A DNA stretch of 64,000 bases, taken from Nitrospirota bacterium. Its GTDB lineage: Bacteria; Nitrospirota; Thermodesulfovibrionia; Thermodesulfovibrionales; SM23-35. Of this stretch, positions 1 through 62,896 are shown one piece after another. The translations under genes were made by a program, and so were the position numbers. The notes beneath the pieces were generated by a model. That model did not search any database. It worked only from the letters and a program-made list of their open reading frames with translations, and had not been told where the DNA came from. Within the stretch, counting starts at the first letter, position 1. The number at the start of each line of letters is the position of its first letter. The stretch is from the NCBI GenBank assembly GCA_040757475.1, contig JBFLWW010000001.1:55769-119768 (forward strand). Direction: 5' to 3'.

Positions 1-67
1 AAAATTAAAAATGTAAAATTAAGGAAAAAAATTAAATTTTGATTTTGTATACAGAGGAGATTTAAAA

Positions 68-3531: not shown

Positions 3532-4333
3532 GAAAGACAGGCCAATTGGTGTCTTTGATTCTGGGATAGGTGGGCTCACAGTTTTAAAGGAGATAATAAA
3601 GGAACTGCCTGATGAAGGCACTATTTATCTCGGCGATACTGCGAGGGTTCCATACGGGATAAGGTCGCCGGAGACAGTCATTAGATATTCATTCGAAAAT
3701 ACGAGATTCCTCTCTTCGAGAGATATTAAAATCCTTGTAGTTGCCTGCAATACCGCATCGTCTGTCAGCCTCGATGCCATCAAAGGGAGCATCCCGATAC
3801 CTGTTATTGGAGTTATTGAGCCAGGTGCAAAGGCTGCTGTCAGGGCTACAAGGAACAAGAAGATCGGGGTTATAGGCACAGAGGCAACAATAAAAAGCAG
3901 TTCTTATACAAAGGCGATCAAGACTATTAATGAAAATATAGAGGTATTCGGTCTTCCATGTCCTTTATTTGTGCCGCTTGTAGAGGAAGGGTGGACAGAG
4001 GGGGATGTTGTTACCTTGATTGCCAAAAGGTATCTTGAGGGAATAAAAGATAAAGGTATAGATACCCTTGTACTCGGATGCACACATTATCCTTTACTGA
4101 AAAAGGTTATATCCTCGGTTATAGGTGAAGATGTAAGACTTATAGACTCTGCAGTTGAGGTAGCACAGGAGATAAAGGCAACTCTCGAGATTGCTGGTTT
4201 AAAGAGGGAACAGAAGGATGTGCCCCTAAGAGAGTTTTATGTAACAGATTCGCCTGAGAGGTTCATAAAAGTCGGCAAGAACTTTCTTGGACAGAAGATA
4301 GAGCATATAGAGAAAATAGCACTCAACTATTAG
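3524..4333 (+). CDS. murI: glutamate racemase
   Basis: Motifs IGVFDSGIGGLTV, VVACNTAS and LGCTHYP. Confidence 0.93.
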   Translation: MNKKDRPIGVFDSGIGGLTVLKEIIKELPDEGTIYLGDTARVPYGIRSPETVIRYSFENTRFLSSRDIKILVVACNTASSVSLDAIKGSIPIPVIGVIEPGAKAAVRATRNKKIGVIGTEATIKSSSYTKAIKTINENIEVFGLPCPLFVPLVEEGWTEGDVVTLIAKRYLEGIKDKGIDTLVLGCTHYPLLKKVISSVIGEDVRLIDSAVEVAQEIKATLEIAGLKREQKDVPLREFYVTDSPERFIKVGKNFLGQKIEHIEKIALNY

Positions 4334-4368
4334 CTGAAAGCTGAGAGCTAAATGCTTAAAGCTGAAAA
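4334..4368. repeat. heptamer array (single arm): CTGAAAG CTGAGAG CTAAATG CTTAAAG CTGAAAA
   Basis: Five consecutive 7-nt units read directly in the murI-rph spacer. Confidence 0.8.
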
Positions 4369-10355: not shown

Positions 10356-10414
10356 GCATAGAGCTAAGAGCGAAGAGTGAATAGTCAAAAACTCTATGCT
10401 CTTTGCTCTCTGCT
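10356..10414. repeat. two-arm heptamer element (GCATAGA GCTAAGA GCGAAGA GTGAATA GTCAAAA / ACTCTAT GCTCTTT GCTCTCT GCT)
   Basis: It fills the convergent galT/cooC spacer. The right-arm units complement the left-arm units, so it probably also acts as a bidirectional terminator. Confidence 0.8.
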
Positions 10415-18738: not shown

Positions 18739-19525
18739 CAGTATATTCCCTGTAATGGAATATTGATGCTGCAAGGACTGCATCTGCCTTACCATAGACA
18801 AGACCTTCATAGAGATGTTCAAGATTGCCCACTCCACCAGAGGCAATGACAGGAATAGATACAGTCTCGGAAATTGCCCTTGTAAGTTCGATGTCATAGC
18901 CATCCTTAGTACCATCCTTATCCATACTCGTAAGCATAATCTCACCTGCCCCAAGTTTTTGCATCAATCTTGCCCATTTTACCGCATCTATGAGCTTCAT
19001 CTTCCTCCCCCCATGTGTCGAGATTGCCCAAGTCAGATCATCGGCTCGTAGTTTAAGACGGACATCCTTTAGTGAGGGATCATCAAACCAGTCTTCACCT
19101 GTTGCATCAGGCATATGGGTGTACACCCTCCTTGCATCGATGGCGACTACAATACACTGACTGCCAAACCTCTCTGCTGCTCTGCTAATAAAATATGGGT
19201 CTTTTACAGCAGCGGTATTTGTAGAAACTTTATCACACCCTGCATTAAGCAGGTCTCTAATGTCATCAAGGGTCTTTATACCTCCACCAACAGTGAGGGG
19301 CATGAATACATCATTTGCTGTTTTTTCTACCACATCAAGTATAATTTTTCTTTTTTCATGAGATGCTGTAATATCAAGGAAGATAAGTTCATCAGCTCCT
19401 TGCTCATCATAGAATTTTGCATTCTCAACAGGGTCTCCTGCATCCCTTAGATTGACAAAACTTACACCTTTAACAACACGCCCATCTTTTACATCAAGAC
19501 AGGGAATTATTCTTTTAGCAAGCAT
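18686..19525 (-). CDS. hisF: imidazole glycerol phosphate synthase, cyclase subunit
   Basis: Motifs [22 protein letters not shown] and ASGGVG. It carries an insert of about 25-30 aa relative to the usual length of about 253 aa. Confidence 0.95.
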
Positions 19526-20237
19526 TTGCTATCCTTATTGCTTCTCTTAAATCTAACGCCCCTGAATAGATTGCTTTCCCTGTTATCACACCCCAGAGGT
19601 TCTTTATCTTCATCAGATTTTTTATATCCTCAGTGGATGAGACACCACCTGATGCGATTACCGGGATATTGACAGCCTGAACTATCTCCTGTATTGTCCT
19701 GATATTTGGCCCTGTGAGCATACCATCTCTCGATATGTCTGTATAGATTATCCCTGCAGCACCTGATGCCTCTACTGACCTCGCAAGCCCTTTTGCATCA
19801 ACAGATGTCACCTCTTCCCATCCTTTTACTGCAACCTTCCCTCCCCGTGCATCTATACCAACCAGTATCTTGCCTGGATACCTGTCACAGGCCATTTTGA
19901 CAATATCAGGATTATTTACTGCTACAGTTCCGAGTATAACCCTGTTTATACCTGTCTCAATAAGGCTATCAATCTTTTTTATATCCCTTATACCGCCGCC
20001 AACCTCAATGCCGATTGTTACAGATTCTCTTATCCTGATTATTGTATTCAGATTCTTCTGGCTGCCTGTAAGGGCACCATCAAGATCAATAATATGAAGC
20101 AATTCTGCCCCTAAAGATTCCCACTGTTTAGCCATTGCTGCAGGGTCATTTGAATAAACTGTCACTGCCTCTTTCCTCCCCTGAAGAAGCCTGACACACT
20201 GCCCATCTTTTAAATCTATTGCAGGAATAACAAGCAT
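19515..20237 (-). CDS. hisA: 1-(5-phosphoribosyl)-5-[(5-phosphoribosylamino)methylideneamino]imidazole-4-carboxamide isomerase
   Basis: Motifs [25 protein letters not shown] and ASGGVS. It overlaps hisF by 11 nt. Confidence 0.93.
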
Positions 20238-20299
20238 GGATTAATATAACATAAAGAGAGTAACGAGTGACGGGAAGAGATATAAAAAAAATTTAAAGA

Positions 20300-20384
20300 G
20301 CAAAATGAAAAATTACAATTCAAAATTCAAAAATACATTTTTCCTTAATTTTGCATTTTTAATTTTTATTTTTGAATTTTTCAT
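20300..20384. repeat. two-arm heptamer element, CAAAA/TTTTG class, overlapping the start of the DUF3108 gene
   Basis: The left arm is GCAAAAT GAAAAAT TACAATT CAAAATT CAAAAAT and the right arm is CCTTAAT TTTGCAT TTTTAAT TTTTATT TTTGAAT TTTTCAT. The 19-mer TTCCTTAATTTTGCATTTT (20341-20359) is identical to 25397-25415. Confidence 0.85.
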
Positions 20385-21069
20385 ACATACACCCATTGCC
20401 ACACCCTTCAACATACCTGAGAAATTTGAATATGATCTTACATGGAAAGGTATCAGGGCCGGGACAGCATCCCTCGAGATAATAAACGATGGAAATAAGA
20501 TAAGGATTGTTTCGACTGCACGATCAGCAAAATGGATCTCTGTATTTTATACAGTAGATGACAGGGTAGAAAGTACTCTGATAAAAAATGAATCATCATT
20601 TATCGGCCAACCATTAAACTACAGGCTCAAGATAAGAGAAGGCAGACATAGAAGAGATAAGGAGGTCATTTTTAAGCAAGACATTGGTAAAGCCACATAT
20701 ATAGACTACCTTACTAATGAAAAACAAGAATTCGACATACCTTTTTTTATCTTTGACCCAGTATCAAGTTTTTATTATCTTAGAACACTTCAACTTGAGG
20801 TAGGAAAGCCTGTTTATATGACTATTTTTGACAGCAAGAAGGTGTGGAATGTAGAGATTAAGGTTCTGAAAAAAGAGCGGCTGGAGCTTCCTACCGGGGT
20901 TTTCGATACAATACTCGTAAAACCCATTATGAAATCAGAAGGCATCTTTCACAGAAAAGGTGATATACTTATCTGGCTTACAGATGATAAAAGGCGCATA
21001 CCAGTAAGAATGAAGACAAAGATAGTTGTAGGCTCTGTGGTGGCAACTCTTGTAGGAGGAGACTATTGA
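20305..21069 (+). CDS. DUF3108-domain protein (secreted)
   Basis: Hydrophobic N-terminus, then YDLTWKGIRAGTASLEI... and a C-terminal ..IPVRMKTKIVVGSVVATLV pattern typical of DUF3108. Confidence 0.7.
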   Translation: MKNYNSKFKNTFFLNFAFLIFIFEFFIHTPIATPFNIPEKFEYDLTWKGIRAGTASLEIINDGNKIRIVSTARSAKWISVFYTVDDRVESTLIKNESSFIGQPLNYRLKIREGRHRRDKEVIFKQDIGKATYIDYLTNEKQEFDIPFFIFDPVSSFYYLRTLQLEVGKPVYMTIFDSKKVWNVEIKVLKKERLELPTGVFDTILVKPIMKSEGIFHRKGDILIWLTDDKRRIPVRMKTKIVVGSVVATLVGGDY

Positions 21070-21818: not shown

Positions 21819-21972
21819 AGATAGGAAAGGCTGTCTCAGAATTTTTATAATCGACAGGATTATTAATATGGCAATCGTAAGTGCCTTAAAGATTAAAGGT
21901 TTATTCGTTTACGCCTCAAAGGGTTTTACTTTAAGGTGTCGTATAAAAATTCTTCACCAGCCTTCCCTATCT
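21819..21972. repeat. 154-bp element bounded by ~37-bp imperfect inverted repeats (MITE-like or structured RNA)
   Basis: AGATAGGAAAGGCTG..TCAGAATTTTTATA (21819-21849) faces TATAAAAATTCTTCACCAGCCTTCCCTATCT (21942-21972). The inner pair is CCTTAAAG/CTTTAAGG. Confidence 0.5.
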
Positions 21973-22016
21973 AACCTGATAGTTTTATACATAGGGAATA
22001 ATGAAGGGAGGTCGCT

Positions 22017-23318
22017 GTGCATATAGGGATAATCGGTACTGGCTATGTCGGTCTTGTAACAGGAGCCTGTTTTGCAGAGTTTGGTGTCTTTGTAACATGT
22101 GTTGATAAGGATGAAAAGAAGATAAAATTTCTAAATAAGGGTATTGTTTCTTTTTATGAGCCGGGGCTTGAGGACCTCGTAAGGAGAAATATAAAACAAG
22201 GCCGCCTGAATTTTACTACAAAGATTGCGGATGCTGTTGATTCTTCCCTGGTGATATTCATAGCTGTTGGTACACCACCGAGGGGTAATGGCTCTGCTGA
22301 TCTGAAATATATAGAAGCTGTGGCTAAGGAGATAGCTTCCCATTTAGACGGATATAAAGTAATCGTCACAAAAAGCACAGTACCTGTCGGGACAGGCCAG
22401 AAGCTGAGGGAGATAATATCCAGAAATCTTAAAGAACAGGTGGATTTTGATATTGTCTCAAACCCGGAGTTTCTCAGGGAAGGCTCTGCAATAGAAGACT
22501 TTATGAGGCCAAACAGGGTCATTATAGGTGCAAAGAGTCAACAGGCAATAGCAATAATGAAAGACCTTTATAAACCTCTTTATCTTATCGAGACGCCGTT
22601 TGTTATAACTAATATGGAGACAGCAGAATTGATAAAGTATGCATCCAATTCGTTTTTAGCAACAAAGATTTCTTTTATCAATGAGATTGCAAACCTTTGT
22701 GAGAAGGTGGGAGCTGATGTCCATACGGTAGCAAAGGGCATGGGACTTGACCAGAGGATAGGTGCAAAATTTCTCCACCCTGGCCCTGGCTATGGCGGCT
22801 CATGCTTTCCAAAAGATACAAAGGCTATCATCAACATTGCAGAAAAACACAGAGTTGAACTCAATGTTATTAATGCAGCAGTAAAGGCTAATGAGAGGCA
22901 AAGAGAGTTTATGATTGATAAGGTCAGGACGGCTATGGGAGAGCTTAAAGGTAAGACTATTGCTGTCCTCGGTCTTTCTTTTAAGCCGAATACTGACGAT
23001 ATCAGAGATGCACCCTCTATTTATATAATCAAAAAGCTTTTAGAGTCCGGGGCAAGGATTAGAGCATATGACCCTGCGGCAATGAGCCGTCTTAAGGCAG
23101 TATTACCTGAGATTAGATATTGCAGGGACTCATATGATGCGGTCAGGGGTGTTGATGCACTCATGATTGTGACCGAATGGAACCAATTCAGGAACCTCGA
23201 CTTAGAAAGGATTAAAAGACTGTTGAGACAACCTTACTTTTTTGATCTGAGAAATATATACGAGCCAGCGAAGCTGAAGGAACTCGGATTTAAATATTTC
23301 TGCGTTGGAAGGGTTTGA
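22017..23318 (+). CDS. ugd: UDP-glucose 6-dehydrogenase
   Basis: GTG start after GGGAGG. Motifs IGTGYVGLV and GGSCFPKD. Confidence 0.93.
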   Translation: MHIGIIGTGYVGLVTGACFAEFGVFVTCVDKDEKKIKFLNKGIVSFYEPGLEDLVRRNIKQGRLNFTTKIADAVDSSLVIFIAVGTPPRGNGSADLKYIEAVAKEIASHLDGYKVIVTKSTVPVGTGQKLREIISRNLKEQVDFDIVSNPEFLREGSAIEDFMRPNRVIIGAKSQQAIAIMKDLYKPLYLIETPFVITNMETAELIKYASNSFLATKISFINEIANLCEKVGADVHTVAKGMGLDQRIGAKFLHPGPGYGGSCFPKDTKAIINIAEKHRVELNVINAAVKANERQREFMIDKVRTAMGELKGKTIAVLGLSFKPNTDDIRDAPSIYIIKKLLESGARIRAYDPAAMSRLKAVLPEIRYCRDSYDAVRGVDALMIVTEWNQFRNLDLERIKRLLRQPYFFDLRNIYEPAKLKELGFKYFCVGRV

Positions 23319-23327
23319 GATGCGGTT

Positions 23328-23402
23328 GGGCGATTAGCTCAGTGGGAGAGCGCTGCCTTCACACGGCAGAGGTCGTAGGTTCGAAACCTACATCGCCTAC
23401 CA
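23328..23402 (+). tRNA. tRNA-Val (anticodon CAC)
   Basis: Cloverleaf read by eye. Acceptor GGGCGAT/ATCGCCT, D-arm GCTC-AGTGGGA-GAGC, anticodon arm CTGCC-TTCACAC-GGCAG, T-arm GTAGG-TTCGAAA-CCTAC, encoded CCA. Confidence 0.9.
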
Positions 23403-25356: not shown

Positions 25357-25437
25357 AAAATCAAAAATCAAATATTAAAAAATCAAAATTATGGAGTTCC
25401 TTAATTTTGCATTTTGATTTTTGCATTTTACATTTTT
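25357..25437. repeat. two-arm heptamer element, CAAAA/TTTTG class, inside the por operon (porA-porB spacer)
   Basis: The left arm is AAAATCAAAAATCAAATATTAAAAAATCAAAATT and the right arm is TTCCTTAATTTTGCATTTTGATTTTTGCATTTTACATTTTT. Confidence 0.85.
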
Positions 25438-28961: not shown

Positions 28962-29405
28962 ATGAAAAAAGAAAGAATGAAAAGGGAATTTACTGAAGAA
29001 GAAAAAAAGGACATGCCTCTTTATCCCATAGGGATTGTAGCAGAACTTATAGGTACAACTGACCAGACGCTTCGCCTTTATGAAAAGCACGGCCTGCTAA
29101 AACCAGCCCGGAGGAATAAAAACAGATTTTATTCTGAGAATGACATAAAGTGGCTTAGATGTCTGAGAGACCTGATACATAACAGAAAGATCAGCATTGA
29201 AGGCATAAAGAAGCTGCTTGATTATGCGCCATGTTGGGAGATAACAGAGTGTTCAGAGGAGAGAAGAAATAAGTGCTCTGCATATATAGACAGAACAAAG
29301 CCATGCTGGGAACTGAACAGAATAATATGCCAGAGGGAATCAGGCAGGATATGTGAGGACTGCGTTGTATTCTTATCCAAGATTATCAAGAAAAGTGTTA
29401 ATTAA
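28962..29405 (+). CDS. MerR-family (HspR-like) transcriptional regulator with C-terminal Cys-rich domain containing two PCWE motifs
   Basis: The HTH is YPIGIVAELIGTTDQTLRLYEKHGLLKP.R....R.YS..D. The C-terminus is APCWEITECSEERRNKCSAYIDRTKPCWELNRIICQRESGRICEDCVVF, with 7 Cys. Confidence 0.8.
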   Translation: MKKERMKREFTEEEKKDMPLYPIGIVAELIGTTDQTLRLYEKHGLLKPARRNKNRFYSENDIKWLRCLRDLIHNRKISIEGIKKLLDYAPCWEITECSEERRNKCSAYIDRTKPCWELNRIICQRESGRICEDCVVFLSKIIKKSVN

Positions 29406-30795
29406 ACGCTGCTATCACAGCATTGAGTTTCCCTTCGACAAACTCTTTTATTTCCCTGAGAGATTCTTCGTCTTTTGCCTCGAACCTCATCACAAGCGCA
29501 GGCTGGGTGTTTGAAGCCCTAATAAGTGCCCATCCTTTATCAAACTTAATCCTTATACCGTCAATATCATTAAGAGGGTAGTCCCTGAATGCCTCTTTTG
29601 TCTTATCAACTATCTTGAACTTTATCTCATCTGGGCATTCAAATCTTATCTCAGGTGTTGACACACTCTTGGGGATATCTGCGAGGAGCCGCTTTATGGA
29701 ATAGGGTCTTCCGTTCTTTGCAAGTATCTCAAGAAGCCTCAAGCTCGCATATATAGCGTCATCGTATCCGAAATACCTGTCAGAGAAGAATATATGGCCG
29801 CTCATCTCTCCACCAAGCAGTGCGCCTGCCTCTTTCATCTTACTTTTTATGAGTGAGTGTCCTGCCTTCCACATAATGGGATTCCCTCCGAGCCTTCGTA
29901 TCTCATCATACATTACCTGAGAACATTTCACCTCACCCACAAATGTTGGGGGTTTTGAGCTTTGAGCTTTGAGCTTTAGGCTTTGAGTTTCAATGATGTC
30001 CCTTGCAAATATAATCATCAGCCTGTCTCCCCATACCACATCACCATCCCTATCAACAACACCAATCCTGTCAGCATCTCCATCATAGCCGATTCCGAGG
30101 TCTGCACCATGAGCTGATACATTTGCAATAAGGTCTTTTATATTATCCATTACTGTAGGGTCAGGATGGTGGTTTGGAAAATTTCCATCGGGTTCGCAAT
30201 AAAGCTCTATCACCTCGCAGCCTAAGTCCTTCATTAGTTGCGGTGCCAGAAGGCCGGCTGTGCCATTACCCGCGTCAATTACAACCTTTATCCTGTCAAA
30301 TTGAGAGAAATTTCTCTTAAGGTGTCCTATATATTTTGGGATTATCTCATATACTTCGGTTGTCCCTCTCCCCTGAGTAAAATCACCCTGTTCCACTATC
30401 CTCTTTACATCCTGTATCTTTTCTCCATAAAGGGTTTCTTTGCCTACACTGAGTTTCATGCCATTGAATTCAGGAGGGTTGTGGCTTCCTGTAATCATCA
30501 CTCCACCGTCAACAGGGAGATGGAATAGAGAGAAGTACTGAAGAGGAGTTGGGCATATGCCAATATCTACAACATCAATTCCGCTAACAAGGAGCCCATG
30601 CGACAATGCTTCAAGTATAGCAGGAGAACTCAGTCGCACATCCCTTCCAATGCTCACCTTTATTTTTTCTTTTTTGAGGGCGGCCCTCAGATAAACTGCA
30701 AATGCCCTGCCTATCTTTTCTATAACCTCTTCTGTGAGGTCCCTTCCCCATATCCCTCTTATATCATACTGTCTGAAGATTGCAGGATTTAACAC
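29398..30795 (-). CDS. phosphomannomutase/phosphoglucomutase (alpha-D-phosphohexomutase)
   Basis: Active-site loop TGSHNPPEFNGMK, metal loop GYDGDADR and GGEMSGH. Confidence 0.9.
   Translation of the reverse strand: MLNPAIFRQYDIRGIWGRDLTEEVIEKIGRAFAVYLRAALKKEKIKVSIGRDVRLSSPAILEALSHGLLVSGIDVVDIGICPTPLQYFSLFHLPVDGGVMITGSHNPPEFNGMKLSVGKETLYGEKIQDVKRIVEQGDFTQGRGTTEVYEIIPKYIGHLKRNFSQFDRIKVVIDAGNGTAGLLAPQLMKDLGCEVIELYCEPDGNFPNHHPDPTVMDNIKDLIANVSAHGADLGIGYDGDADRIGVVDRDGDVVWGDRLMIIFARDIIETQSLKLKAQSSKPPTFVGEVKCSQVMYDEIRRLGGNPIMWKAGHSLIKSKMKEAGALLGGEMSGHIFFSDRYFGYDDAIYASLRLLEILAKNGRPYSIKRLLADIPKSVSTPEIRFECPDEIKFKIVDKTKEAFRDYPLNDIDGIRIKFDKGWALIRASNTQPALVMRFEAKDEESLREIKEFVEGKLNAVIAAFN
29953..29992. repeat. 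heptamer array inside the phosphomannomutase ORF
   Basis: The minus strand reads ACTCAAA GCCTAAA GCTCAAA GCTCAAA GCTCAAA, translated as ..ETQSLKLKAQSSKPP... Confidence 0.8.
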
Positions 30796-39577: not shown

Positions 39578-39649
39578 AGTTATGAGTGATGAGTTACGAG
39601 TGAGAAGTTAAAAACTATGGACCTTTAAACTTCTCGTTTAACTCGTTAC
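39578..39649. repeat. two-arm heptamer element (TTATGAG TGATGAG TTACGAG TGAGAAG TTAAAA / TTTAAACTTCTCGTTTAACTCGTTAC)
   Basis: Read directly in the qmoC-hppA spacer. Confidence 0.8.
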
Positions 39650-49203: not shown

Positions 49204-49240
49204 AAAATTTTAAATTTTAAATTTTAAATTTTAAATTTTT
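49204..49240. repeat. (TAAATTT)x5 perfect-to-near-perfect tandem heptamer upstream of aprB
   Basis: AAAATTT TAAATTT TAAATTT TAAATTT TAAATTT, read directly. Confidence 0.9.
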
Positions 49241-54155: not shown

Positions 54156-54941
54156 ATGCCCAGGAAGAGGCTTCTGCTTTTTCTCTTTATAATCACATCC
54201 CTCAGCTTGATGACTTATCAGAGTAACAGAGAACATCTCCTGCCCCTTAAATTCCTGAGTAACACACTTAACAGGTTTCATGCTATAGCGAATTCTGTAA
54301 AGGACTCGGTTACCTCTCCTTTTAAAAGGATGCTCATCAGGGAAGAGGAAAATATAAGATTAAAAGCAGAACTTAACAAATTATTCAAAGAACAGCAGAG
54401 GTACCAGGAGGCTCTGCTCGAAAATAAGAGACTCAGGGAGATCCTCTCGCTTAAGGAAAAAGGGCAAGGGTATGTTACTGCTGCACGTGTTATAGCAAGA
54501 GGTGCAGACCAGTGGTCAAATACATTTATCCTCGATAAGGGGCTCTCAGACGGGGTTGTAAAAGACATGACGGCTATTACACACAGAGGGCTGGTAGGGA
54601 AGATCTCATGGGTATCTGATTCTTACTCAACCCTGCTTCTCCTCACTGACATAAACTTCTCTGCAGCGGTAAGGCTTCAGGAAAGCAGAAAAGAGGGTAT
54701 AATCTCAGGTACAGGCTTCAGGAAATGCCAACTGAAATACATCCCCTCTGAAGAAGAGGTAAAGACAGGCGATATTGTAGTAACATCAGGACTTGATTCA
54801 CTATTCCCTCGGGGCATCCCTGTAGGCTATGTGTCAAAGGTGGACAAAAAGGGCACAGGGCTTTTCCAGGACATCGAAGTGCTTCCATTTGAGGATAATA
54901 CAAAGATTGAGGAGGTAGCAATAATAAAAAATCAAAGATAA
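54156..54941 (+). CDS. mreC: rod shape-determining protein MreC
   Basis: N-terminal TM helix, the coiled coil ENIRLKAELNKL, and GLVGKI plus IVVTSGLDSLFPRGIPVG. Confidence 0.88.
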   Translation: MPRKRLLLFLFIITSLSLMTYQSNREHLLPLKFLSNTLNRFHAIANSVKDSVTSPFKRMLIREEENIRLKAELNKLFKEQQRYQEALLENKRLREILSLKEKGQGYVTAARVIARGADQWSNTFILDKGLSDGVVKDMTAITHRGLVGKISWVSDSYSTLLLLTDINFSAAVRLQESRKEGIISGTGFRKCQLKYIPSEEEVKTGDIVVTSGLDSLFPRGIPVGYVSKVDKKGTGLFQDIEVLPFEDNTKIEEVAIIKNQR

Positions 54942-55033
54942 AAATTTAAATGCAAAATTGAGGAAATTTATTTTTGAAATTTTGAATTGTAATTTTGTAT
55001 TTTGCTTTTTGAATTTTGATTTTAGTGATTTTA
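54925..55033. repeat. two-arm heptamer element, CAAAA/TTTTG class (mreC-mreD junction)
   Basis: The left arm is AAAAAATCAAAGATAAAAATTTAAATGCAAAATTG and the right arm is ATTTATTTTTGAAATTTTGAATTGTAATTTTGTATTTTGCTTTTTGAATTTTGATTTTAGTGATTTT. Confidence 0.8.
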
Positions 55034-55572: not shown

Positions 55573-57426
55573 TTGAAAAGTGAATCTGAAAAGATATTGA
55601 TAATAAGCTACATAGTGATTGCGGTCTTTCTGCTGCTCATAATGAGGTTGTGGCAGCTTCAGATACTGCAGGGCAGCAAATACAGAAATATGTCTGAAGC
55701 TAACAGGCTAAGGATAATGACGATACCGGCACCCCGGGGAATAATATTTGACAGAAACGGTACCCCGCTTGTAAAAAACTCCTCTTATTACTGTGCCTCG
55801 ATAATCCCTGATGAATTTGATAGGGTTAAGGTCGAAATGCTTGCAAAAGTCCTTAACATGCCGGTTAAGGGGATATTCGAAAAAATAAACAAGAAGGAAC
55901 TAAGTCCTTTTATACCTATAAGACTAAAACAAGGGCTGTCTTTCAATGAGGTCGTATATATTGAATCGAGGCGATCAGACTTCCGGGGTCTTATCATCGA
56001 GACTGAGGTAAGCAGGGAATATATTTATGGTGATGTTGGTTCACACCTCATAGGTTATCTTGGAAAACTTAATCCCTCCCAATCAAAAGACCCTGCATTC
56101 AGGGATGTACCACCAGAGGCATTCATAGGGCAGTGGGGTGTTGAGATGCTATTCGATAAATCACTAAGGGGTATACCAGGCAAGAGGGTTATTGAGGTTG
56201 ATGCACTCGGCAGGGAGATAAAACTGTTACAGGAAAAATCTCCAATAAAAGGAGAAGACCTCATGCTGAGCATAGACATTAATCTCCAGAAAGAGGCTGA
56301 GAAAGCGTTTGGAGAAAGGGCAGGTGCACTTGTTGCAATTAAGCCCAACACCGGCGAGATACTGGGATTGATAAGCAGGCCTTCTTTTGACCCCGACCTC
56401 TTCGCAAGAGGTATAAGTCATGATGAATGGATAGCCCTTACCCAGGATAAAAAGAAGCCCATGCTTAACAGGGCACTACAGAGTCAGTATCCTCCTGGCT
56501 CAACATTCAAGATTGTTACTGCAATAGCAGGACTTGAGGAAGGAGTTATTACCCCTGAGACAAAGGTAGAGTGCAGGGGTGGAATTAACTATGGCAGGTG
56601 GCGTTTTGGCTGCTGGCGTAAAAAGGGGCACGGCGTAGTTTCCCTGCATAGGGCGCTGGTAGAATCATGTGATGTATATTTCTACGAGGTGGGTAAACGT
56701 CTCGGCATAGATAAAATTTATAATTATGCCACAAGTCTTGGCCTCGGAAAAGAAACAGGCATTGAACTTGGAAAAGAAAAGCAGGGATTGATGCCAAACA
56801 CAAAATGGAAGCAGGAAAACAAAAGACTTCCATGGTTCTTAGGTGAAACCTTTAATACAGCAATAGGACAGGGATATGTTTCTGCAACACCTATACAGAT
56901 GGCAGTTATGACAGGTGCAATAGCAAATGGTGGGAATCTATACAGGCCAACACTGATTAAGGACCTCCGACCAGTACTTTCAGGAAAGGCGAAGATAAGA
57001 CCCGAGACTCTTGATATCATTAAAAGCGCACTTTCCGGTGTTGTGAATGAGCCCGGTGGGACTGGATGGGCTGCAAAATCACCATTAATAAGCATCGGAG
57101 GTAAGACAGGGACCGCACAGGTTGTGAGGATGAAGATGGGCTTTAAGTATTCCCCAGAGAGATTCAGGGACCATGCATGGTTTGTTGCATTTGCCCCGGT
57201 AGAAAAACCAGAGGTAGCACTTGCAGTATTTGTCGAACATGGCGGACATGGCGGAGGGGCTGCAGCACCAATTGCAAAGAGGGCGATAGAAGGATATATG
57301 AACAGTTCAAAGTTCAAAGTTCAAAGTTTGACTCTGAATCAAGTTCAGGCCAAAATTCAAAATTCAAAACTCAAAACTCGAAACTCGAAATTCAAAAATG
57401 ATACACATAGATCGCAGATTAATTAA
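55573..57426 (+). CDS. mrdA: penicillin-binding protein 2 (elongasome transpeptidase)
   Basis: TTG start and TM helix. The PBP dimer domain is followed by STFK, SCD.. and KTGTAQ. The C-terminal ~40 aa are translated from a heptamer array. Confidence 0.92.
   Translation: MKSESEKILIISYIVIAVFLLLIMRLWQLQILQGSKYRNMSEANRLRIMTIPAPRGIIFDRNGTPLVKNSSYYCASIIPDEFDRVKVEMLAKVLNMPVKGIFEKINKKELSPFIPIRLKQGLSFNEVVYIESRRSDFRGLIIETEVSREYIYGDVGSHLIGYLGKLNPSQSKDPAFRDVPPEAFIGQWGVEMLFDKSLRGIPGKRVIEVDALGREIKLLQEKSPIKGEDLMLSIDINLQKEAEKAFGERAGALVAIKPNTGEILGLISRPSFDPDLFARGISHDEWIALTQDKKKPMLNRALQSQYPPGSTFKIVTAIAGLEEGVITPETKVECRGGINYGRWRFGCWRKKGHGVVSLHRALVESCDVYFYEVGKRLGIDKIYNYATSLGLGKETGIELGKEKQGLMPNTKWKQENKRLPWFLGETFNTAIGQGYVSATPIQMAVMTGAIANGGNLYRPTLIKDLRPVLSGKAKIRPETLDIIKSALSGVVNEPGGTGWAAKSPLISIGGKTGTAQVVRMKMGFKYSPERFRDHAWFVAFAPVEKPEVALAVFVEHGGHGGGAAAPIAKRAIEGYMNSSKFKVQSLTLNQVQAKIQNSKLKTRNSKFKNDTHRSQIN
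57305..57397. repeat. heptamer arrays (GTTCAAA x3; AAATTCA AAATTCA AAACTCA AAACTCG AAACTCG AAATTCA) at the mrdA/rodA junction
   Basis: Read directly. The arrays lie inside the 3' end of the mrdA ORF and end at the rodA ATG (57398). Confidence 0.85.
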
Positions 57427-59427: not shown

Positions 59428-60996
59428 ATGGATACGAGAACCCTTATTGCCATAGCACTCGCATTTGCTATCCTCTTTCTCTACCAGTACTTCTTTATTA
59501 AACCTGAACCACAGCAGGTTCAAAAACAAGCAAAGGTAGAAAAGAAAGAAGAACCTAAACCTGTAAAGCCTGTAGAGGTCACGATAAATAAAGGTATACC
59601 CTCTGAAGAAAAAGAGCTAAGGGTCGAGACTGAATTATATTCAGCAGTCTTTACAACAAAAGGTGGGACATTAAAATACTATGAGCTTAAACCCTATAAG
59701 GATAAAGAGGGCAAAAATATTGTACTCCTTAAAAAGTCAGGCATCCATCCTCCTCTCAGTATAGGGTCGAAAGACGACTTTGATCTGGCTAATGCAAATT
59801 TTAATGTTATCGGAAAGGATATCAAACTCAATAGAGATAAAAAGTCAGATTCATTCATATTCGAATATACAGATTCAGGATTCTCTGTTAGAAGGACATA
59901 TACGTTTCATAATGATGATTACAGGGTTGATATTAAAGATGAGGTTTCAGGACTGCCTGATTACTGGATAACCCTCGGGACTGATTTTGGCATCCATAAT
60001 GATAAAGATAAATCATCGCATATAGGTCCTGTTCTTCTCAAGGAGAGTGAGAGGGTCGAGTTTAATGCAAAGAAACTGAATGAAACGAGGAGCTATAAAG
60101 AGGGCCTGAAGTGGATAGCCCAAGAAGATAAGTATTTCTTTGCCTCACTTGTCCCACTTAACAATATGGAAGAGGCAAAGGCATGGAGGGAGAAGGACTC
60201 TCTTGTCATCGCCTTAAGAGGCAAACCTACTACAAACAGCCTTATTCTGTATGCCGGACCAAAAGAACATGACAGGCTTAGTAAACTCAATGTCGGCCTT
60301 GAGCATATCATTGACTTTGGCTTTTTTTCTATCATAGCAAGGCCACTTTTCTGGCTTCTGAAATTTTTTTATAAGTTCATTGGCAACTATGGATGGGCGA
60401 TAGTCCTTCTTACTATAATTACCAGGATACCTTTTATCCCGCTCGTTAACAAAAGCCAGAAGGCAATGAAGAAGATGCAGGAAATACAGCCCAGGCTGGC
60501 CGAGATAAAAGAAAAATACAAGAAAGACCCACAGAGGATGCAGAGGGAGATGATGGAGCTTTATAAAAAGCATAAGGTGAATCCTATGGGAGGGTGTCTC
60601 CCGATACTCCTTCAGATACCCGTATTCTTTGCACTTTATAAGATATTGTTGATAGCTATAGAATTGAGAGATGCACCATTTATGCTATGGATAAAAGACC
60701 TGTCTGCACCCGACTCTCTTTTTGGACACATCCCTTCATGGTTTCCTTTAATCGGCGACTTTGCTGTAGGTCCATTGCCCATAATCATGGGTATCACCAT
60801 GATAATCCAGCAGAAGATGACACCTACATCCATGGATCCAACACAGGCCAAGATAATGATGCTTATGCCGATTATATTCACATTTCTGTTCCTCAACTTT
60901 GCATCAGGACTTGTCCTTTACTGGCTCATAAACAACATCCTCAGTATAGCCCAGCAGTTCTATGTGAACAGGAAACTCGCAAAGCAGACAGCGTAA
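59428..60996 (+). CDS. yidC: membrane protein insertase YidC
   Basis: 522 aa. An N-terminal TM helix, a periplasmic domain and a conserved C-terminal core (NYGWAI.LLTI..R....PL, GCLP.L.Q.P.FFALY). Confidence 0.93.
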   Translation: MDTRTLIAIALAFAILFLYQYFFIKPEPQQVQKQAKVEKKEEPKPVKPVEVTINKGIPSEEKELRVETELYSAVFTTKGGTLKYYELKPYKDKEGKNIVLLKKSGIHPPLSIGSKDDFDLANANFNVIGKDIKLNRDKKSDSFIFEYTDSGFSVRRTYTFHNDDYRVDIKDEVSGLPDYWITLGTDFGIHNDKDKSSHIGPVLLKESERVEFNAKKLNETRSYKEGLKWIAQEDKYFFASLVPLNNMEEAKAWREKDSLVIALRGKPTTNSLILYAGPKEHDRLSKLNVGLEHIIDFGFFSIIARPLFWLLKFFYKFIGNYGWAIVLLTIITRIPFIPLVNKSQKAMKKMQEIQPRLAEIKEKYKKDPQRMQREMMELYKKHKVNPMGGCLPILLQIPVFFALYKILLIAIELRDAPFMLWIKDLSAPDSLFGHIPSWFPLIGDFAVGPLPIIMGITMIIQQKMTPTSMDPTQAKIMMLMPIIFTFLFLNFASGLVLYWLINNILSIAQQFYVNRKLAKQTA

Positions 60997-60997
60997 T

Positions 60998-61106
60998 CTC
61001 CAATCACCAATAATCAAACACCAATAACCAAATAAGCTCCAATAACCAATTACCAAACTCAAGAAATTGTTTGGTTATTGAAATTTGGTCATTGGTTATT
61101 ACCCAA
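60998..61106. repeat. two-arm heptamer element, CCAATAA/TTGGTTATTG class
   Basis: The left arm is CTCCAATCACCAATAATCAAACACCAATAACCAAATAAGCTCCAATAACCAATTACCAAAC and the right arm is TTTGGTTATTGAAATTTGGTCATTGGTTATTACCCAAT. Confidence 0.85.
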
Positions 61107-61125
61107 TCTGCGTTATACTATAAAT

Positions 61126-62517
61126 ATGTCCACTGACGATACCATAGCTGCGATATCCACTCCTGTTGGTGAGGGGGGAATAGGGATTGTCAGATTGAGT
61201 GGGGAAGATTCTGTAGAGATTGCAGAAAAAATCTTCTACTCTCCAAAAAATAAATTTCTTCGTGATTCAAAATCCTACAGAGTTATCTATGGCTTTATAA
61301 AAGACCCAACAACCGGAGAAGAGGTTGACGAAGTGCTCATTACAGTAATGCGCTCTCCCTACTCTTATACAAAAGAGGATGTCGTTGAGATAAACTGTCA
61401 TGGAGGAATGATTCCACTCAGAAAGACACTCGAGCTTGTCCTGAAAGAAGGTGCAAGGCTTGCAGAGCCAGGGGAGTTTACTAAGAGGGCATTTATAAAT
61501 GGAAGGATAGACCTCAGCCAGGCAGAGGCAGTACTTGATCTCATAAGGTCTAAGACGGATGAGAGCAGAAGGATTGCGATTGAGCAACTTCAGGGCGGTC
61601 TCTCTGAAAAGATAACAGCACTGAGAGACAGGTTGACAGAGCTCTGTGCCCATGTAGAGGCATACATTGACTTCCCTGAGGATGAGATAGAGACAGCATC
61701 AAAACAGGACATGTTAGGGTCAATGAAAGAGATTATCAGAGAACTTCAGGCACTCCTCAAGAGCTATGATGAGGCAAGGTTCTTCAGGGAGGGACTTTCA
61801 ACTGCAATCGTTGGAAGACCAAATGTAGGGAAATCATCCCTCCTCAATGCACTCCTTAAAAAAGATAGGGCAATAGTTACAGAGGTTCCAGGGACAACAA
61901 GGGATGTGATCGAGGAGTATCTGAATATAAATGGGCTTCCACTTAGAATCATGGATACAGCAGGTATAAGAGCTGTACAGGATATTGCTGAGAAGGAGGG
62001 TGTAAGAAGAAGTCTTCAGAGTATCGAGAATGCTGACCTTGTGATTGCCATCTTCGACAGTAGTGAACCTTTTAAAGATGAGGATTTCGAGGTTATGGAG
62101 AAGATAAAGGGTAAGAATGCAATTATTGTCATAAACAAGTGTGACCTCCCATCAGCATTTGATGAAGATACACTCTCATCTTGCATCCTGCATCCTGCAT
62201 CACGTATCTTGCAAATCTCTGCAACCCGAGGCGATGGTCTCGAGGAACTAAAGGACAGGATATTCGATTTATGTCTAAAGGACTGGAGGGAGGAAAGAGA
62301 AGGAGTTGTTATAACAAACCTCAGGCACAAGACCGCCATAGAGAATGCTAAGGCATCACTCGATAGGGCAATGTATGCATTGATAGAGAATCAACCACTC
62401 GAAATCCTTGCCCTCGAGCTCAGGGATTCCCTCGACAGGCTCGGTGAAATCGTTGGAGCTGTCACAACAGAGGATATACTGAACAGGATTTTCAACGATT
62501 TTTGTATCGGGAAATAG
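61126..62517 (+). CDS. mnmE: tRNA modification GTPase MnmE
   Basis: MSTDDTIAAISTP.G.GGIGIVR.SG, G-domain GRPNVGKSSLLN / DTAGIR / NKCD, and C-terminal FCIGK. The track start 61078 lies in the repeat element. Confidence 0.93.
   Translation: MSTDDTIAAISTPVGEGGIGIVRLSGEDSVEIAEKIFYSPKNKFLRDSKSYRVIYGFIKDPTTGEEVDEVLITVMRSPYSYTKEDVVEINCHGGMIPLRKTLELVLKEGARLAEPGEFTKRAFINGRIDLSQAEAVLDLIRSKTDESRRIAIEQLQGGLSEKITALRDRLTELCAHVEAYIDFPEDEIETASKQDMLGSMKEIIRELQALLKSYDEARFFREGLSTAIVGRPNVGKSSLLNALLKKDRAIVTEVPGTTRDVIEEYLNINGLPLRIMDTAGIRAVQDIAEKEGVRRSLQSIENADLVIAIFDSSEPFKDEDFEVMEKIKGKNAIIVINKCDLPSAFDEDTLSSCILHPASRILQISATRGDGLEELKDRIFDLCLKDWREEREGVVITNLRHKTAIENAKASLDRAMYALIENQPLEILALELRDSLDRLGEIVGAVTTEDILNRIFNDFCIGK
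62177..62218. repeat. heptamer array inside mnmE: CATCTTG CATCCTG CATCCTG CATCACG TATCTTG CAAATCT
   Basis: Read directly; it is translated as ..SSCILHPASRILQIS... Confidence 0.75.
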
Positions 62518-62616: not shown

Positions 62617-62811
62617 ATGGAATGCATACAGGAAAAATTTAAGAAATACTGTATCTGCACATATGAGCCATGTGAGAGAAAAAGTAGATGCTGTGAATGC
62701 CTCCATTATCACAGAAGAAATGGAGAGCTACCAGCATGCTTCTTCAATAAAGAATATGAAAGGACTTATGAACGCTCTATAGCGAATTTTATACGTATGC
62801 ATAAGAAATAA
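62617..62811 (+). CDS. small Cys-rich protein (resembles the DUF6485 family as I recall it)
   Basis: 64 aa with C.C....C.R...CC.C..YH...G.LPACFF. AAGGAGG SD upstream. Confidence 0.5.
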   Translation: MECIQEKFKKYCICTYEPCERKSRCCECLHYHRRNGELPACFFNKEYERTYERSIANFIRMHKK

Positions 62812-62896
62812 AAAGTTCAAATGTCAAAGCTCAAATTTCAAATGTCTTTGATATTTTGATTTATTTGGTATTTGAATTTTGGATTTTGAATTTGTT
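62811..62896. repeat. two-arm heptamer element, TCAAA/TTTGA class
   Basis: The left arm is GTTCAAA TGTCAAA GCTCAAA TTTCAAA and the right arm is TCTTTGA TATTTTGA TTTATTTGG TATTTGA ATTTTGG ATTTTGA ATTTG. Confidence 0.85.

Follow-up and report, generated by a model that had tools for sequence, protein, structure and literature searches.

It is already known that palindromic repeats can lie in frame within genes, that hydrophobic parts of leader peptides can be repeat-coded, that T-rich DNA can give membrane segments and that heptamer arrays can stand before start codons. According to the accounts available of them, the Rickettsia palindromic elements (RPEs) lie in frame within coding sequences (Ogata et al. 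2000, 2002, summarised in PMC10969869), and some ERIC, BOX and MITE copies do likewise (PMC10969869). In the Neisseria opa genes the coding repeat CTCTT encodes the hydrophobic part of the leader peptide (PMC3960869), while arrays of the heptamer TAACTGA in Beggiatoaceae, and the cyanobacterial STRR, lie just upstream of start codons; the report on these arrays mentions repeat-encoded residues at protein ends and proposes no signal-peptide role (PMC4679880). Moreover, thymine-rich non-coding DNA has been described as a source of de novo membrane segments in yeast open reading frames (ORFs) (PMC7005711). In the literature we found no description of a dispersed element that gives the start codon and the n- and h-regions of a secretion signal and is conserved across an order. 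Here we report on a stretch of 64,000 nucleotides of a Nitrospirota bacterium (contig JBFLWW010000001.1; hereafter the window), in which a gene for a DUF3108 protein (20305..21069, + strand) begins inside a repeat element consisting of an A-rich arm, a core and a T-rich arm, all built from 7-nt units. In our opinion, the 5′ end of this gene is quite probably a co-opted copy of a dispersed repeat, which would supply the start codon and both the charged and the hydrophobic region of the signal.

The comparison with the systems mentioned above reveals, in each case, a partial likeness. As in the RPEs, to judge from those same accounts, a short palindromic repeat lies within an ORF, is translated in frame and is structurally peripheral in the protein; in addition, the element is also translated in an unrelated gene, that of the peptidase PBP4. 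However, the two have no sequence relation, and the DUF3108 element is made of 7-nt units, stands at the N-terminus and contains the start codon; it is proposed to be a targeting signal conserved across an order, whereas the RPE is described as a neutral surface loop and a lineage-specific insertion. With opa, the locus shares short tandem repeats which have a unit length not divisible by three and would encode the hydrophobic part of an envelope-protein signal; by contrast, opa has perfect repeats of variable number that act in on/off switching, whereas the units at DUF3108 are degenerate and showed no variation in number, and the n-region and start codon come in addition from an A-rich partner arm. 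The TAACTGA and STRR arrays resemble the family described here in their 7-nt unit, their dozens of arrays per genome a few nucleotides from start codons, the occasional overlap with ORF ends and the patchy distribution over several phyla, but their unit sequences are different, and the DUF3108 family consists of complementary A/T arm pairs around a conserved core. The likeness to repetitive extragenic palindromic (REP), BIME and MITE sequences consists in the dispersed, imperfectly palindromic and mostly extragenic copies between the genes of operons and in genome-specific variants, such as a GC palindrome in Pirellulales; an AT-rich core conserved across phyla is, however, unusual for REPs. 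Finally, as in the yeast case, hydrophobic helices of use to the cell arise when T-rich DNA is read in frame, but there the ORFs are new, whereas at DUF3108 a pre-existing gene would take its signal from a repeat, whose A-arm gives the charged part.

The full copy, delimited by an nhmmer profile, by BLAST and by a shuffle test, occupies positions 20288..20390 (+), somewhat beyond the 20300-20384 given in a first-pass annotation made from the sequence alone. Its A-rich left arm (20288..20335, +), defined by Tandem Repeats Finder (TRF) and by alignment with the left arm of a second copy between mreC and mreD, holds an array of period 7 (CAAAATT x4.7, 20301-20332) and encodes MKNYNSKFKN; the arm includes both a weak Shine-Dalgarno (SD)-like AAAGAG at 20294-20299 and the ATG of the ORF (20305..20307, +), which is the first start codon after the preceding stop. 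The T-rich right arm (20345..20384, +), supported by TRF, by hydropathy and by an AlphaFold2 model, holds a second period-7 array (x5.3, 20345-20381) and encodes the hydrophobic segment LNFAFLIFIFEFFI. The core between the arms reads ACATTTTTCCTTAATTTTGCA, and the core 19-mer TTCCTTAATTTTGCATTTT (20341..20359, +), which comprises the loop and the start of the right arm, encodes FLNFAF. The heptamer units are degenerate, with 73-76% matches in TRF, and the arms 20302-20335 and 20346-20379 are 79% complementary (74-79% over 34-39 nt). No target-site duplication was seen at the element ends.

The ORF reads through this element in frame: its first 28 codons, that is the start codon, a Lys-rich tip and a hydrophobic core, are the element copy, codons 2-45 contain no ATG, GTG or TTG, and the conserved domain (Pfam DUF3108, PF11306, residues 42-250, E 7e-45) begins only at residue 42. 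Three claims of the first-pass annotation were borne out in this way, namely that about the first 27 codons are a translation of a two-arm element, that the T-rich arm yields the segment rich in Phe, Leu and Ile, and that no alternative in-frame start codon precedes the domain. At the level of the reading frame, this shows the leader to be element-derived and the only possible N-terminus of the ORF. The divergent hisA gene (19515..20237, −), taken from the ORF list and kept in synteny in all related loci, starts 67 bp from the ATG. A scan of 20000-20600 for sigma-70 promoters and terminators gave nothing above shuffled sequences, so that a role of the arms as promoter of hisA or DUF3108 could not be supported.

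A search of the window with a profile built from full element copies recovered the DUF3108 copy at 20289-20390 (E 8e-24), the copy between mreC and mreD (54921..55016, −; E 3e-19) and a non-coding copy between porA and porB (25358..25433, +; E 2e-5). To these are added a copy cut by the window edge (1..41, −), which is a weak profile match and agrees with the core and right arm over 29 nt (97% identity), a divergent and hairpin-like relative with TCAAATG/TTTGAAT heptamer arms upstream of a tRNA (62800..62895, no strand assigned; weak profile match and TRF), and a further weak profile relative at 57353-57400; the 64 kb thus hold three clear dispersed copies and two or three partial or divergent ones. 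The 19-mer TTCCTTAATTTTGCATTTT is found exactly at 20341 and at 25397, the latter being the identical, non-coding string at 25397-25415 between porA and porB to which the first-pass annotation had drawn attention, and with one or two mismatches at 8-26 (−; one mismatch, in the window-edge copy) and 54947-54965 (−), which makes four matches versus 0.07 expected. The DUF3108 and mreC/mreD copies are 86-87% identical over 84-95 nt by BLAST (87% over 84 nt). Since both sequences are of low complexity, each arm was shuffled separately with its dinucleotide content kept; the observed similarity was reached by none of 2000 shuffles for either copy, with z=9.9 against the mreC/mreD copy and z=5.6 against the porA/porB copy.

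The other two clear copies occupy typical spacer positions. The T-rich side of the porA/porB copy adjoins, on the mRNA strand, the SD and ATG of porB, and its FLNFAF frame runs into a TGA after six codons. The mreC/mreD copy provides the last ~7 codons and the stop of mreC (54921-54941), ends ~20 nt 5′ of the likely SD and ATG of mreD, and has ATA where the DUF3108 copy has its ATG; here the mechanically called mreD ORF begins at a TTG inside the element, and the likely start is an ATG after AGAGG, at ~55035. As for the open frame at DUF3108, we rejected it as evidence of translation, as 26 of 44 other copies (59%) are open in the same frame, which is due to their composition.

In its n- and h-regions, the encoded leader has the general plan of a Sec-type signal. 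In MKNYNSKFKN the residues K2, K8 and K10 are positively charged, no acidic residue is found before position 24, and the following stretch reaches a 12-residue Kyte-Doolittle mean of 2.6-2.7 within residues 12-27, with Glu24 as an atypical residue. In the AlphaFold2 model (predicted local distance difference test score 76), residues 7-27 form a helix, which a linker connects to a beta domain beginning at residue 39. Between the end of the T-arm and F35, the first residue of the motif FNIPEK which opens the conserved part of all orthologues, there are only six codons, which do not belong to the element and encode the c-region TPIATP (20389..20406, +). All 118 orthologues with a scorable N-terminus have a hydrophobic stretch (median 12-residue hydropathy 2.68), followed by a small-residue site A-x-[SAP] before F+1: Ala occupies position −3 in 96 of them and Phe position +1 in 112, and position −1 holds Ser (60), Pro (38) or Ala (17). 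By Foldseek, the domain is related to a DUF1849 barrel (6ntr, TM 0.58), to 3fzx, a 'putative exported protein with YmcC-like fold', and to LolA/LolB/LprG-type lipid carriers, whereas a PDB sequence search returned no solved relative and an NCBIfam search no family. By Pfam, synteny and fold, the gene is the first of an operon of envelope-polysaccharide type with GT2, Wzy_C and GT9 genes, which it heads also in related genomes. On account of the orthologue leaders, the exported-type fold and the envelope operon, an exported protein is expected, and the element would be the only sequence able to carry the export signal; we infer that the element segment works as such. The proposal of the first-pass annotation that a repeat was exapted as a secretion signal is therefore sustained as regards the element origin, the single start and the orthologue comparison, while for the export function itself it is a prediction from sequence.

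The way in which the element may act can be outlined as follows. An A in the second position of a codon specifies a hydrophilic residue, a T a hydrophobic one; thus, an inverted repeat with an A-arm and a T-arm, if read in frame, yields a charged segment followed by a hydrophobic one. Translation would start at the ATG inside the A-rich arm, the A-arm would be read as a Lys/Asn n-region and the T-arm as a Phe/Leu/Ile h-region, giving a ready-made Sec-type signal, and the six ordinary codons would supply the c-region and the cleavage site before FNIPEK. As to the origin, elements of this type normally lie just 5′ of start codons, and a small deletion or a new start codon in the A-arm could fuse the element to the gene, after which the old signal would be dispensable except for its cleavage region.

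The orthologues, 60-82% identical in their mature part, indicate how old the arrangement is. An element-type N-terminus, with the pattern MKNYN[SL]KFKN..LNFAF[LC]I..F.FF at a constant distance to FNIPEK, was found in 28 of 117, scattered across nearly all clades of a neighbour-joining tree, which was midpoint-rooted and had no outgroup. At the DNA level, the element is plain in the related loci L003, L146, L147, L148 and L149 (E 5e-24 to 5e-13), is reduced to the right arm in L002 and L004-L006, and is decayed but recognisable in L132, L129 and L128. A (GCTGTCA)3-4 array lies in the loop of L126 and L136, with length and frame unchanged, and elsewhere the orthologue leaders carry (GGGGACA)4, (GGTTCAA)3 or (GGTCAAT)n arrays or GC-richer hairpins. 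The comparison of orthologue N-termini that the first-pass annotation had called for gave a divided answer: in L132, L129 and L128 the N-termini are weakly homologous without an intact repeat, yet these are decayed copies, and one clade has an unrelated, ordinary signal (MKKIRMKILYFILWFLISATSIAYA/DP and relatives; here and below the slash marks the putative cleavage site). As judged from these loci, the arrangement is old and common to many Thermodesulfovibrionales orthologues at one junction, and is not a recent insertion; its simplest reading is one old event with later decay and replacement, in which the element would have replaced an ancestral ordinary signal once, early in this Thermodesulfovibrionales lineage. 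Consequently, the alternative raised by the first-pass annotation, that an inserted element replaced the original N-terminus, fails as a recent event at this locus and is favoured, by parsimony, as an old one.

Repeats of other kinds are also translated at these genes. They lie within or before the DUF3108 orthologues P0004, P0006/P0007, P0027 and P0057, and at 9900-9990 of L129; an internal in-frame insert, NENNPP.PPFSKGGKGGFSGE, is found at one loop, and repeat-derived leaders include PPFTKGGKGG, KQSQ...RDCFASLAMT and LSAVSCQLSA. Many of the called N-terminal extensions of DUF3108 orthologues are, to judge from such sequences, probably over-extended ORFs. In the window itself, a small ORF between the GT2 and UDP-glucose dehydrogenase genes (21868-22026, MAIVSALKIKGLFVYASKGFTLRCRIKILHQPSLSNL...) belongs to another repeat family, and the peptide MAIVSALKIKGLFVYASKGFTLRCRIKILHQPSLSNL is found again as the called N-terminal extension of P0027.

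Close relatives allowed us to observe the loss of one arm. The locus L002 (GCA_049324155.1) matches the window colinearly over 16.6 kb (98.3-99.7% identity) except for one break, exactly at 20269-20344: the 76 nt of the left arm and the loop are missing there, and a stretch of 28 nt, part of which belongs to another repeat, stands in their place; this is not a clean excision. The right arm of L002 is untouched, and a new in-frame ATG with GAGG before it would give a product beginning MVYINFAFLIF.... In L004, a different hairpin repeat takes the place of the left arm, and the right arm is retained after it. The nucleotide identity of the right arm is 90-100% in L002, L003 and L004, irrespective of differences in the left arm, and the ATG corresponding to 20305 is kept in L003, L146, L147 and L148. 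Since L003 is more distant and yet has the full element, the state found in the window is older than that of L002; moreover, the retention of the right arm in both L002 and L004 identifies the hydrophobic right arm as the retained part.

The element is part of a wider family. An 18-nt core pattern scanned in one genome per species matched at least 118 loci, many of which reflect chance in AT-rich genomes or belong to a coding gene of Pelagibacter; ~45 full elements are among the matches listed, in Pirellulales, Phycisphaerae, Sedimentisphaerales, Nitrospirota, Nitrospinota, Clostridia, Candidate Phyla Radiation (CPR) groups and others. Their architecture is (AAAATCA)n, CAAAATT(G/A)TGGAA, a variable insert, TTCCTTAATTTTGCATTTTG and (TGATTTT)n, where the insert is often a GC-rich, genome-specific palindrome. 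Three copies in one Pirellulales metagenome-assembled genome (MAG; L023, L045, L083) have a common palindrome and T-arm, which looks like proliferation within a genome. In this MAG (CAZYWY01; L023, L045, L083 and also L053) and in other Planctomycetota, a GC palindrome preceded by GTGG stands between the conserved AT-rich halves of the core, in a REP-like manner; the GTGG resembles the 5′ GT[AG]G of REPs, a likeness which we take only as a lead. The copies are mostly extragenic, and in at least 14 of 46 a long ORF begins within ~80 nt past the T-arm, often after 0-18 nt; the genes concerned include porB and mreD in the window and secY in another Nitrospirae MAG (L096), where the 27-nt string AAAATTACAATTCAAAATTCAAAAATA of the DUF3108 copy recurs upstream of secY. 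An Rfam search of the window and eight element-bearing loci found no family matching the element, and in a scan of viral contigs only 2-3 of 18 matches look like real elements, with no sign of a phage vehicle.

A second gene with a translated element was found in a Nitrospinota MAG (L071), in which an ORF of 529 residues encodes a PBP4/DacB-type peptidase (Peptidase_S13, E 1e-92) with the signal-like N-terminus MEKFFLNFAFCILHFAFFSSPAFS. Its leader DNA, ATGGAA...TTCCTTAATTTTGCA(TTTTGCA)x4, has the core and frame of the DUF3108 copy, the ATG deriving from the (A/G)TGGAA half of the core. An 83%-identical PBP4 orthologue has a different leader, MKVSSCKFKVASLKLKILAYCLLPIVYCLFLFSPAFG, made from (GTTGCAA/GTTTAAA)n and then (TGCCTAT)x5, and the c-region SPAF[SG] is kept in both; at the protein level, the leaders of further PBP4 orthologues resemble translations of other heptamer arrays. 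The NCBI start of the L071 gene (56-1645, −; protein P0122) is an internal TTG (MHFAFFSSPAFS...), 12 codons too late, which leaves a leader too short for a signal, whereas the upstream ATG gives a full-length one. When ORFs were scanned under strict criteria for heptamer arrays making up their first 45 codons, only the two PBP4 genes were returned, and PBP4 was also the only further case of a translated element in 1.2 Mb. Among proteins, a 30-aa query from the window against 1.84 billion representatives found no other element-coded N-terminus, and a 42-aa synthetic query gave a single weak match; the recurrence, as read from these genes, is thus based on one extra gene family. With this in mind, we put forward only tentatively the idea that the A-arm/T-arm family, present in several phyla, is a reusable signal-peptide cassette, co-opted repeatedly (DUF3108, PBP4) with a fast turnover of arrays, and that the co-opted copy has a second, nucleic-acid role. 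If this were true, an in-frame copy at the 5′ end of any gene could stand in for the n- and h-regions of a Sec signal, and the second role would explain both the synonymous conservation described below and the presence of the same AT-rich core in Planctomycetota, Nitrospirota, Clostridia and others.

Four other explanations of the locus have to be weighed. Following the opa precedent of CTCTT repeats in Neisseria leaders (PMC3960869), the heptamers in the leader could make up a contingency locus, in which slipped-strand events would cause phase variation of the envelope operon and the coding of a signal would be secondary. A unit of 7, which is no multiple of 3, and the position of the gene at the head of an envelope polysaccharide operon would suit such a switch, as would the perfect arrays found at this place in orthologues, (GCTGTCA)3-4, (GGGGACA)4 and (GGTTCAA)3, and the PBP4 leaders with (TTTTGCA)4 or (TGCCTAT)5. 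Nevertheless, the degeneracy of the units in the window makes slippage unlikely, the near-identical contig L001 shows no change in the number of units, in L002 a whole arm has been exchanged without a shift of frame, and L126 and L136 have the same length and frame; moreover, none of 120 orthologues has an out-of-frame allele, although gene callers would hide such alleles. We therefore regard this explanation as unlikely.

The direction of the co-option may also be inverted, in that an old, ordinary DUF3108 signal might have seeded the other copies by duplication or gene conversion. It is true that no other instance is as well conserved as the DUF3108 copy, that the profile, over 324 kb of orthologous loci and flanks, matches almost only DUF3108 5′ ends, and that orthologous copies (93% to L003) are closer to each other than paralogous ones (87%). 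On the other hand, copies of the core flanked by matching A- and T-arms occur in Planctomycetota, Nitrospinota, Clostridia, CPR groups and others, mostly extragenic and often with a GC palindrome, the spacers of the window contain ~20 other heptamer arrays of other sequences, and the non-coding copies stand in the typical spacer site before an SD and ATG. An origin of the family in the DUF3108 signal is, on this evidence, quite improbable.

An artefact of annotation seems more doubtful still: the element would then be a 5′ untranslated region or a regulatory module, and the protein would start downstream at a rare codon or not be exported. Most other copies do have the SD and ATG of the next gene 0-18 nt past the T-arm, the SD before 20305 is weak, and ATT or ATA is found at codons 20, 22, 27 and 31. 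However, a downstream start would leave just the six c-region codons and no signal, although all 118 orthologues have one; the frame is open through the element, the ATG is kept in diverged orthologues, and L002 gained an in-frame ATG with GAGG directly 5′ of the T-arm. Lastly, a chance resemblance between an AT-rich signal-coding region and AT-rich repeats, to which the low complexity of both and the compositionally open frame of 26 of 44 other copies could point, is hardly credible in view of the within-arm dinucleotide shuffles (0/2000 for both copies) and of the recurrence of AAAATTACAATTCAAAATTCAAAAATA before secY.

Co-option of the repeat as a signal thus appears the best explanation of the locus, and several observations speak against it or against parts of it. 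The c-region of the window protein is somewhat poor, as cleavage as TPIA/TP or ATP/F would place Pro at −3 or −1, which is unfavourable for signal peptidase I; because of this Pro and of Glu24 in the hydrophobic stretch, the segment could be an uncleaved anchor. The order of events, with an ordinary signal first and the element later, is parsimony and not proof, as the tree is not rooted with an outgroup. To these is added the concentration of profile matches at DUF3108 5′ ends reported above and the conservation of the DNA beyond what the protein needs, which a pure signal-peptide reading leaves unexplained. In six orthologous loci the 28 element-coded codons are 82-93% identical at the nucleotide level versus 63-84% for the mature part, and unchanged amino acids have an unchanged codon in 79-96% of cases in the element part versus 32-75% in the mature part; the six c-region codons are 44-72% identical. 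With background codon rates per amino acid taken from hisA, DUF3108 and GT2, the excess persists in four of the six comparisons (p 0.00015, 0.0013, 0.019 and 0.042; the others 0.11 and 0.23), which all share the window sequence and are not independent.

Two causes of this DNA conservation were considered and rejected. Intragenomic homogenisation does not agree with the orthologous copies being more alike than the paralogous ones, and an RNA hairpin does not agree with the weak fold of the element (-11.2 kcal/mol, z -1.98, unstructured centroid) and the lack of covariation, the consensus fold of seven copies having -3.8 kcal/mol, a positive covariation term (+1.17) and many broken pairs. The same results contradict the suggestion in the first-pass annotation that an mRNA hairpin occludes the start codon. 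Candidate causes are a general preference of secretory genes for AU-rich codons near their 5′ ends, a promoter or operator belonging to the divergent hisA, and a nucleic-acid role that also keeps the core alike across phyla.

Besides the element family, the window is rich in heptamer arrays. Period 7 is the dominant tandem-repeat period, with ~20 arrays in 64 kb, most of them 12-22 nt before a start codon. Arrays of unrelated units are found at 4332-4367, 39578-39610, 49205-49239, 60995-61056 and 10360-10414, either 12-22 nt before starts or in a convergent spacer, one being a perfect (AAATTTT)x5. Some are translated: the last ~40 codons of the PBP2 ORF (55573..57426; NSSKFKVQSLTLNQVQAKIQNSKLKTRNSKFKNDTHRSQIN) correspond to (AGTTCAA)x3.6 and (CAAAAYT)x6.7 at 57304-57397, directly before and overlapping the start of rodA (ATG 57398), which suggests that the C-terminal tail of PBP2 is probably repeat-made. 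In the same way, (TTTGAGC)x4.9 (29954-29987) is in frame in an ORF similar to phosphomannomutase/phosphoglucomutase (29398..30795, −), where it adds the RPE-like loop TQSLKLKAQSSK, and (CATCCTG)x3.6 (62177-62213) is in frame in mnmE (61078..62517) and gives SSCILHPASRILQ. The tmRNA gene (1871-2216, Rfam 186 bits) and the tRNAs at 23328, 58587 and 62911 are ordinary.

The arrangement at DUF3108 would represent one way for a selfish or structural repeat to be turned into a functional part of a protein, in this case a whole targeting signal including its start codon, with a product that is no tolerated loop and has long been kept across an order of bacteria. It also bears on the annotation of repeat-rich MAGs, in which many N-terminal 'extensions' may be translations of repeats and gene callers disagree on starts, 12 codons too late in PBP4 and dozens of codons too early in other DUF3108 orthologues. 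The finding raises the question of why one AT-rich core of 20 nt is common to distant phyla and, if the cassette idea holds more widely, it would provide a simple and testable rule for the renewal of signal peptides.

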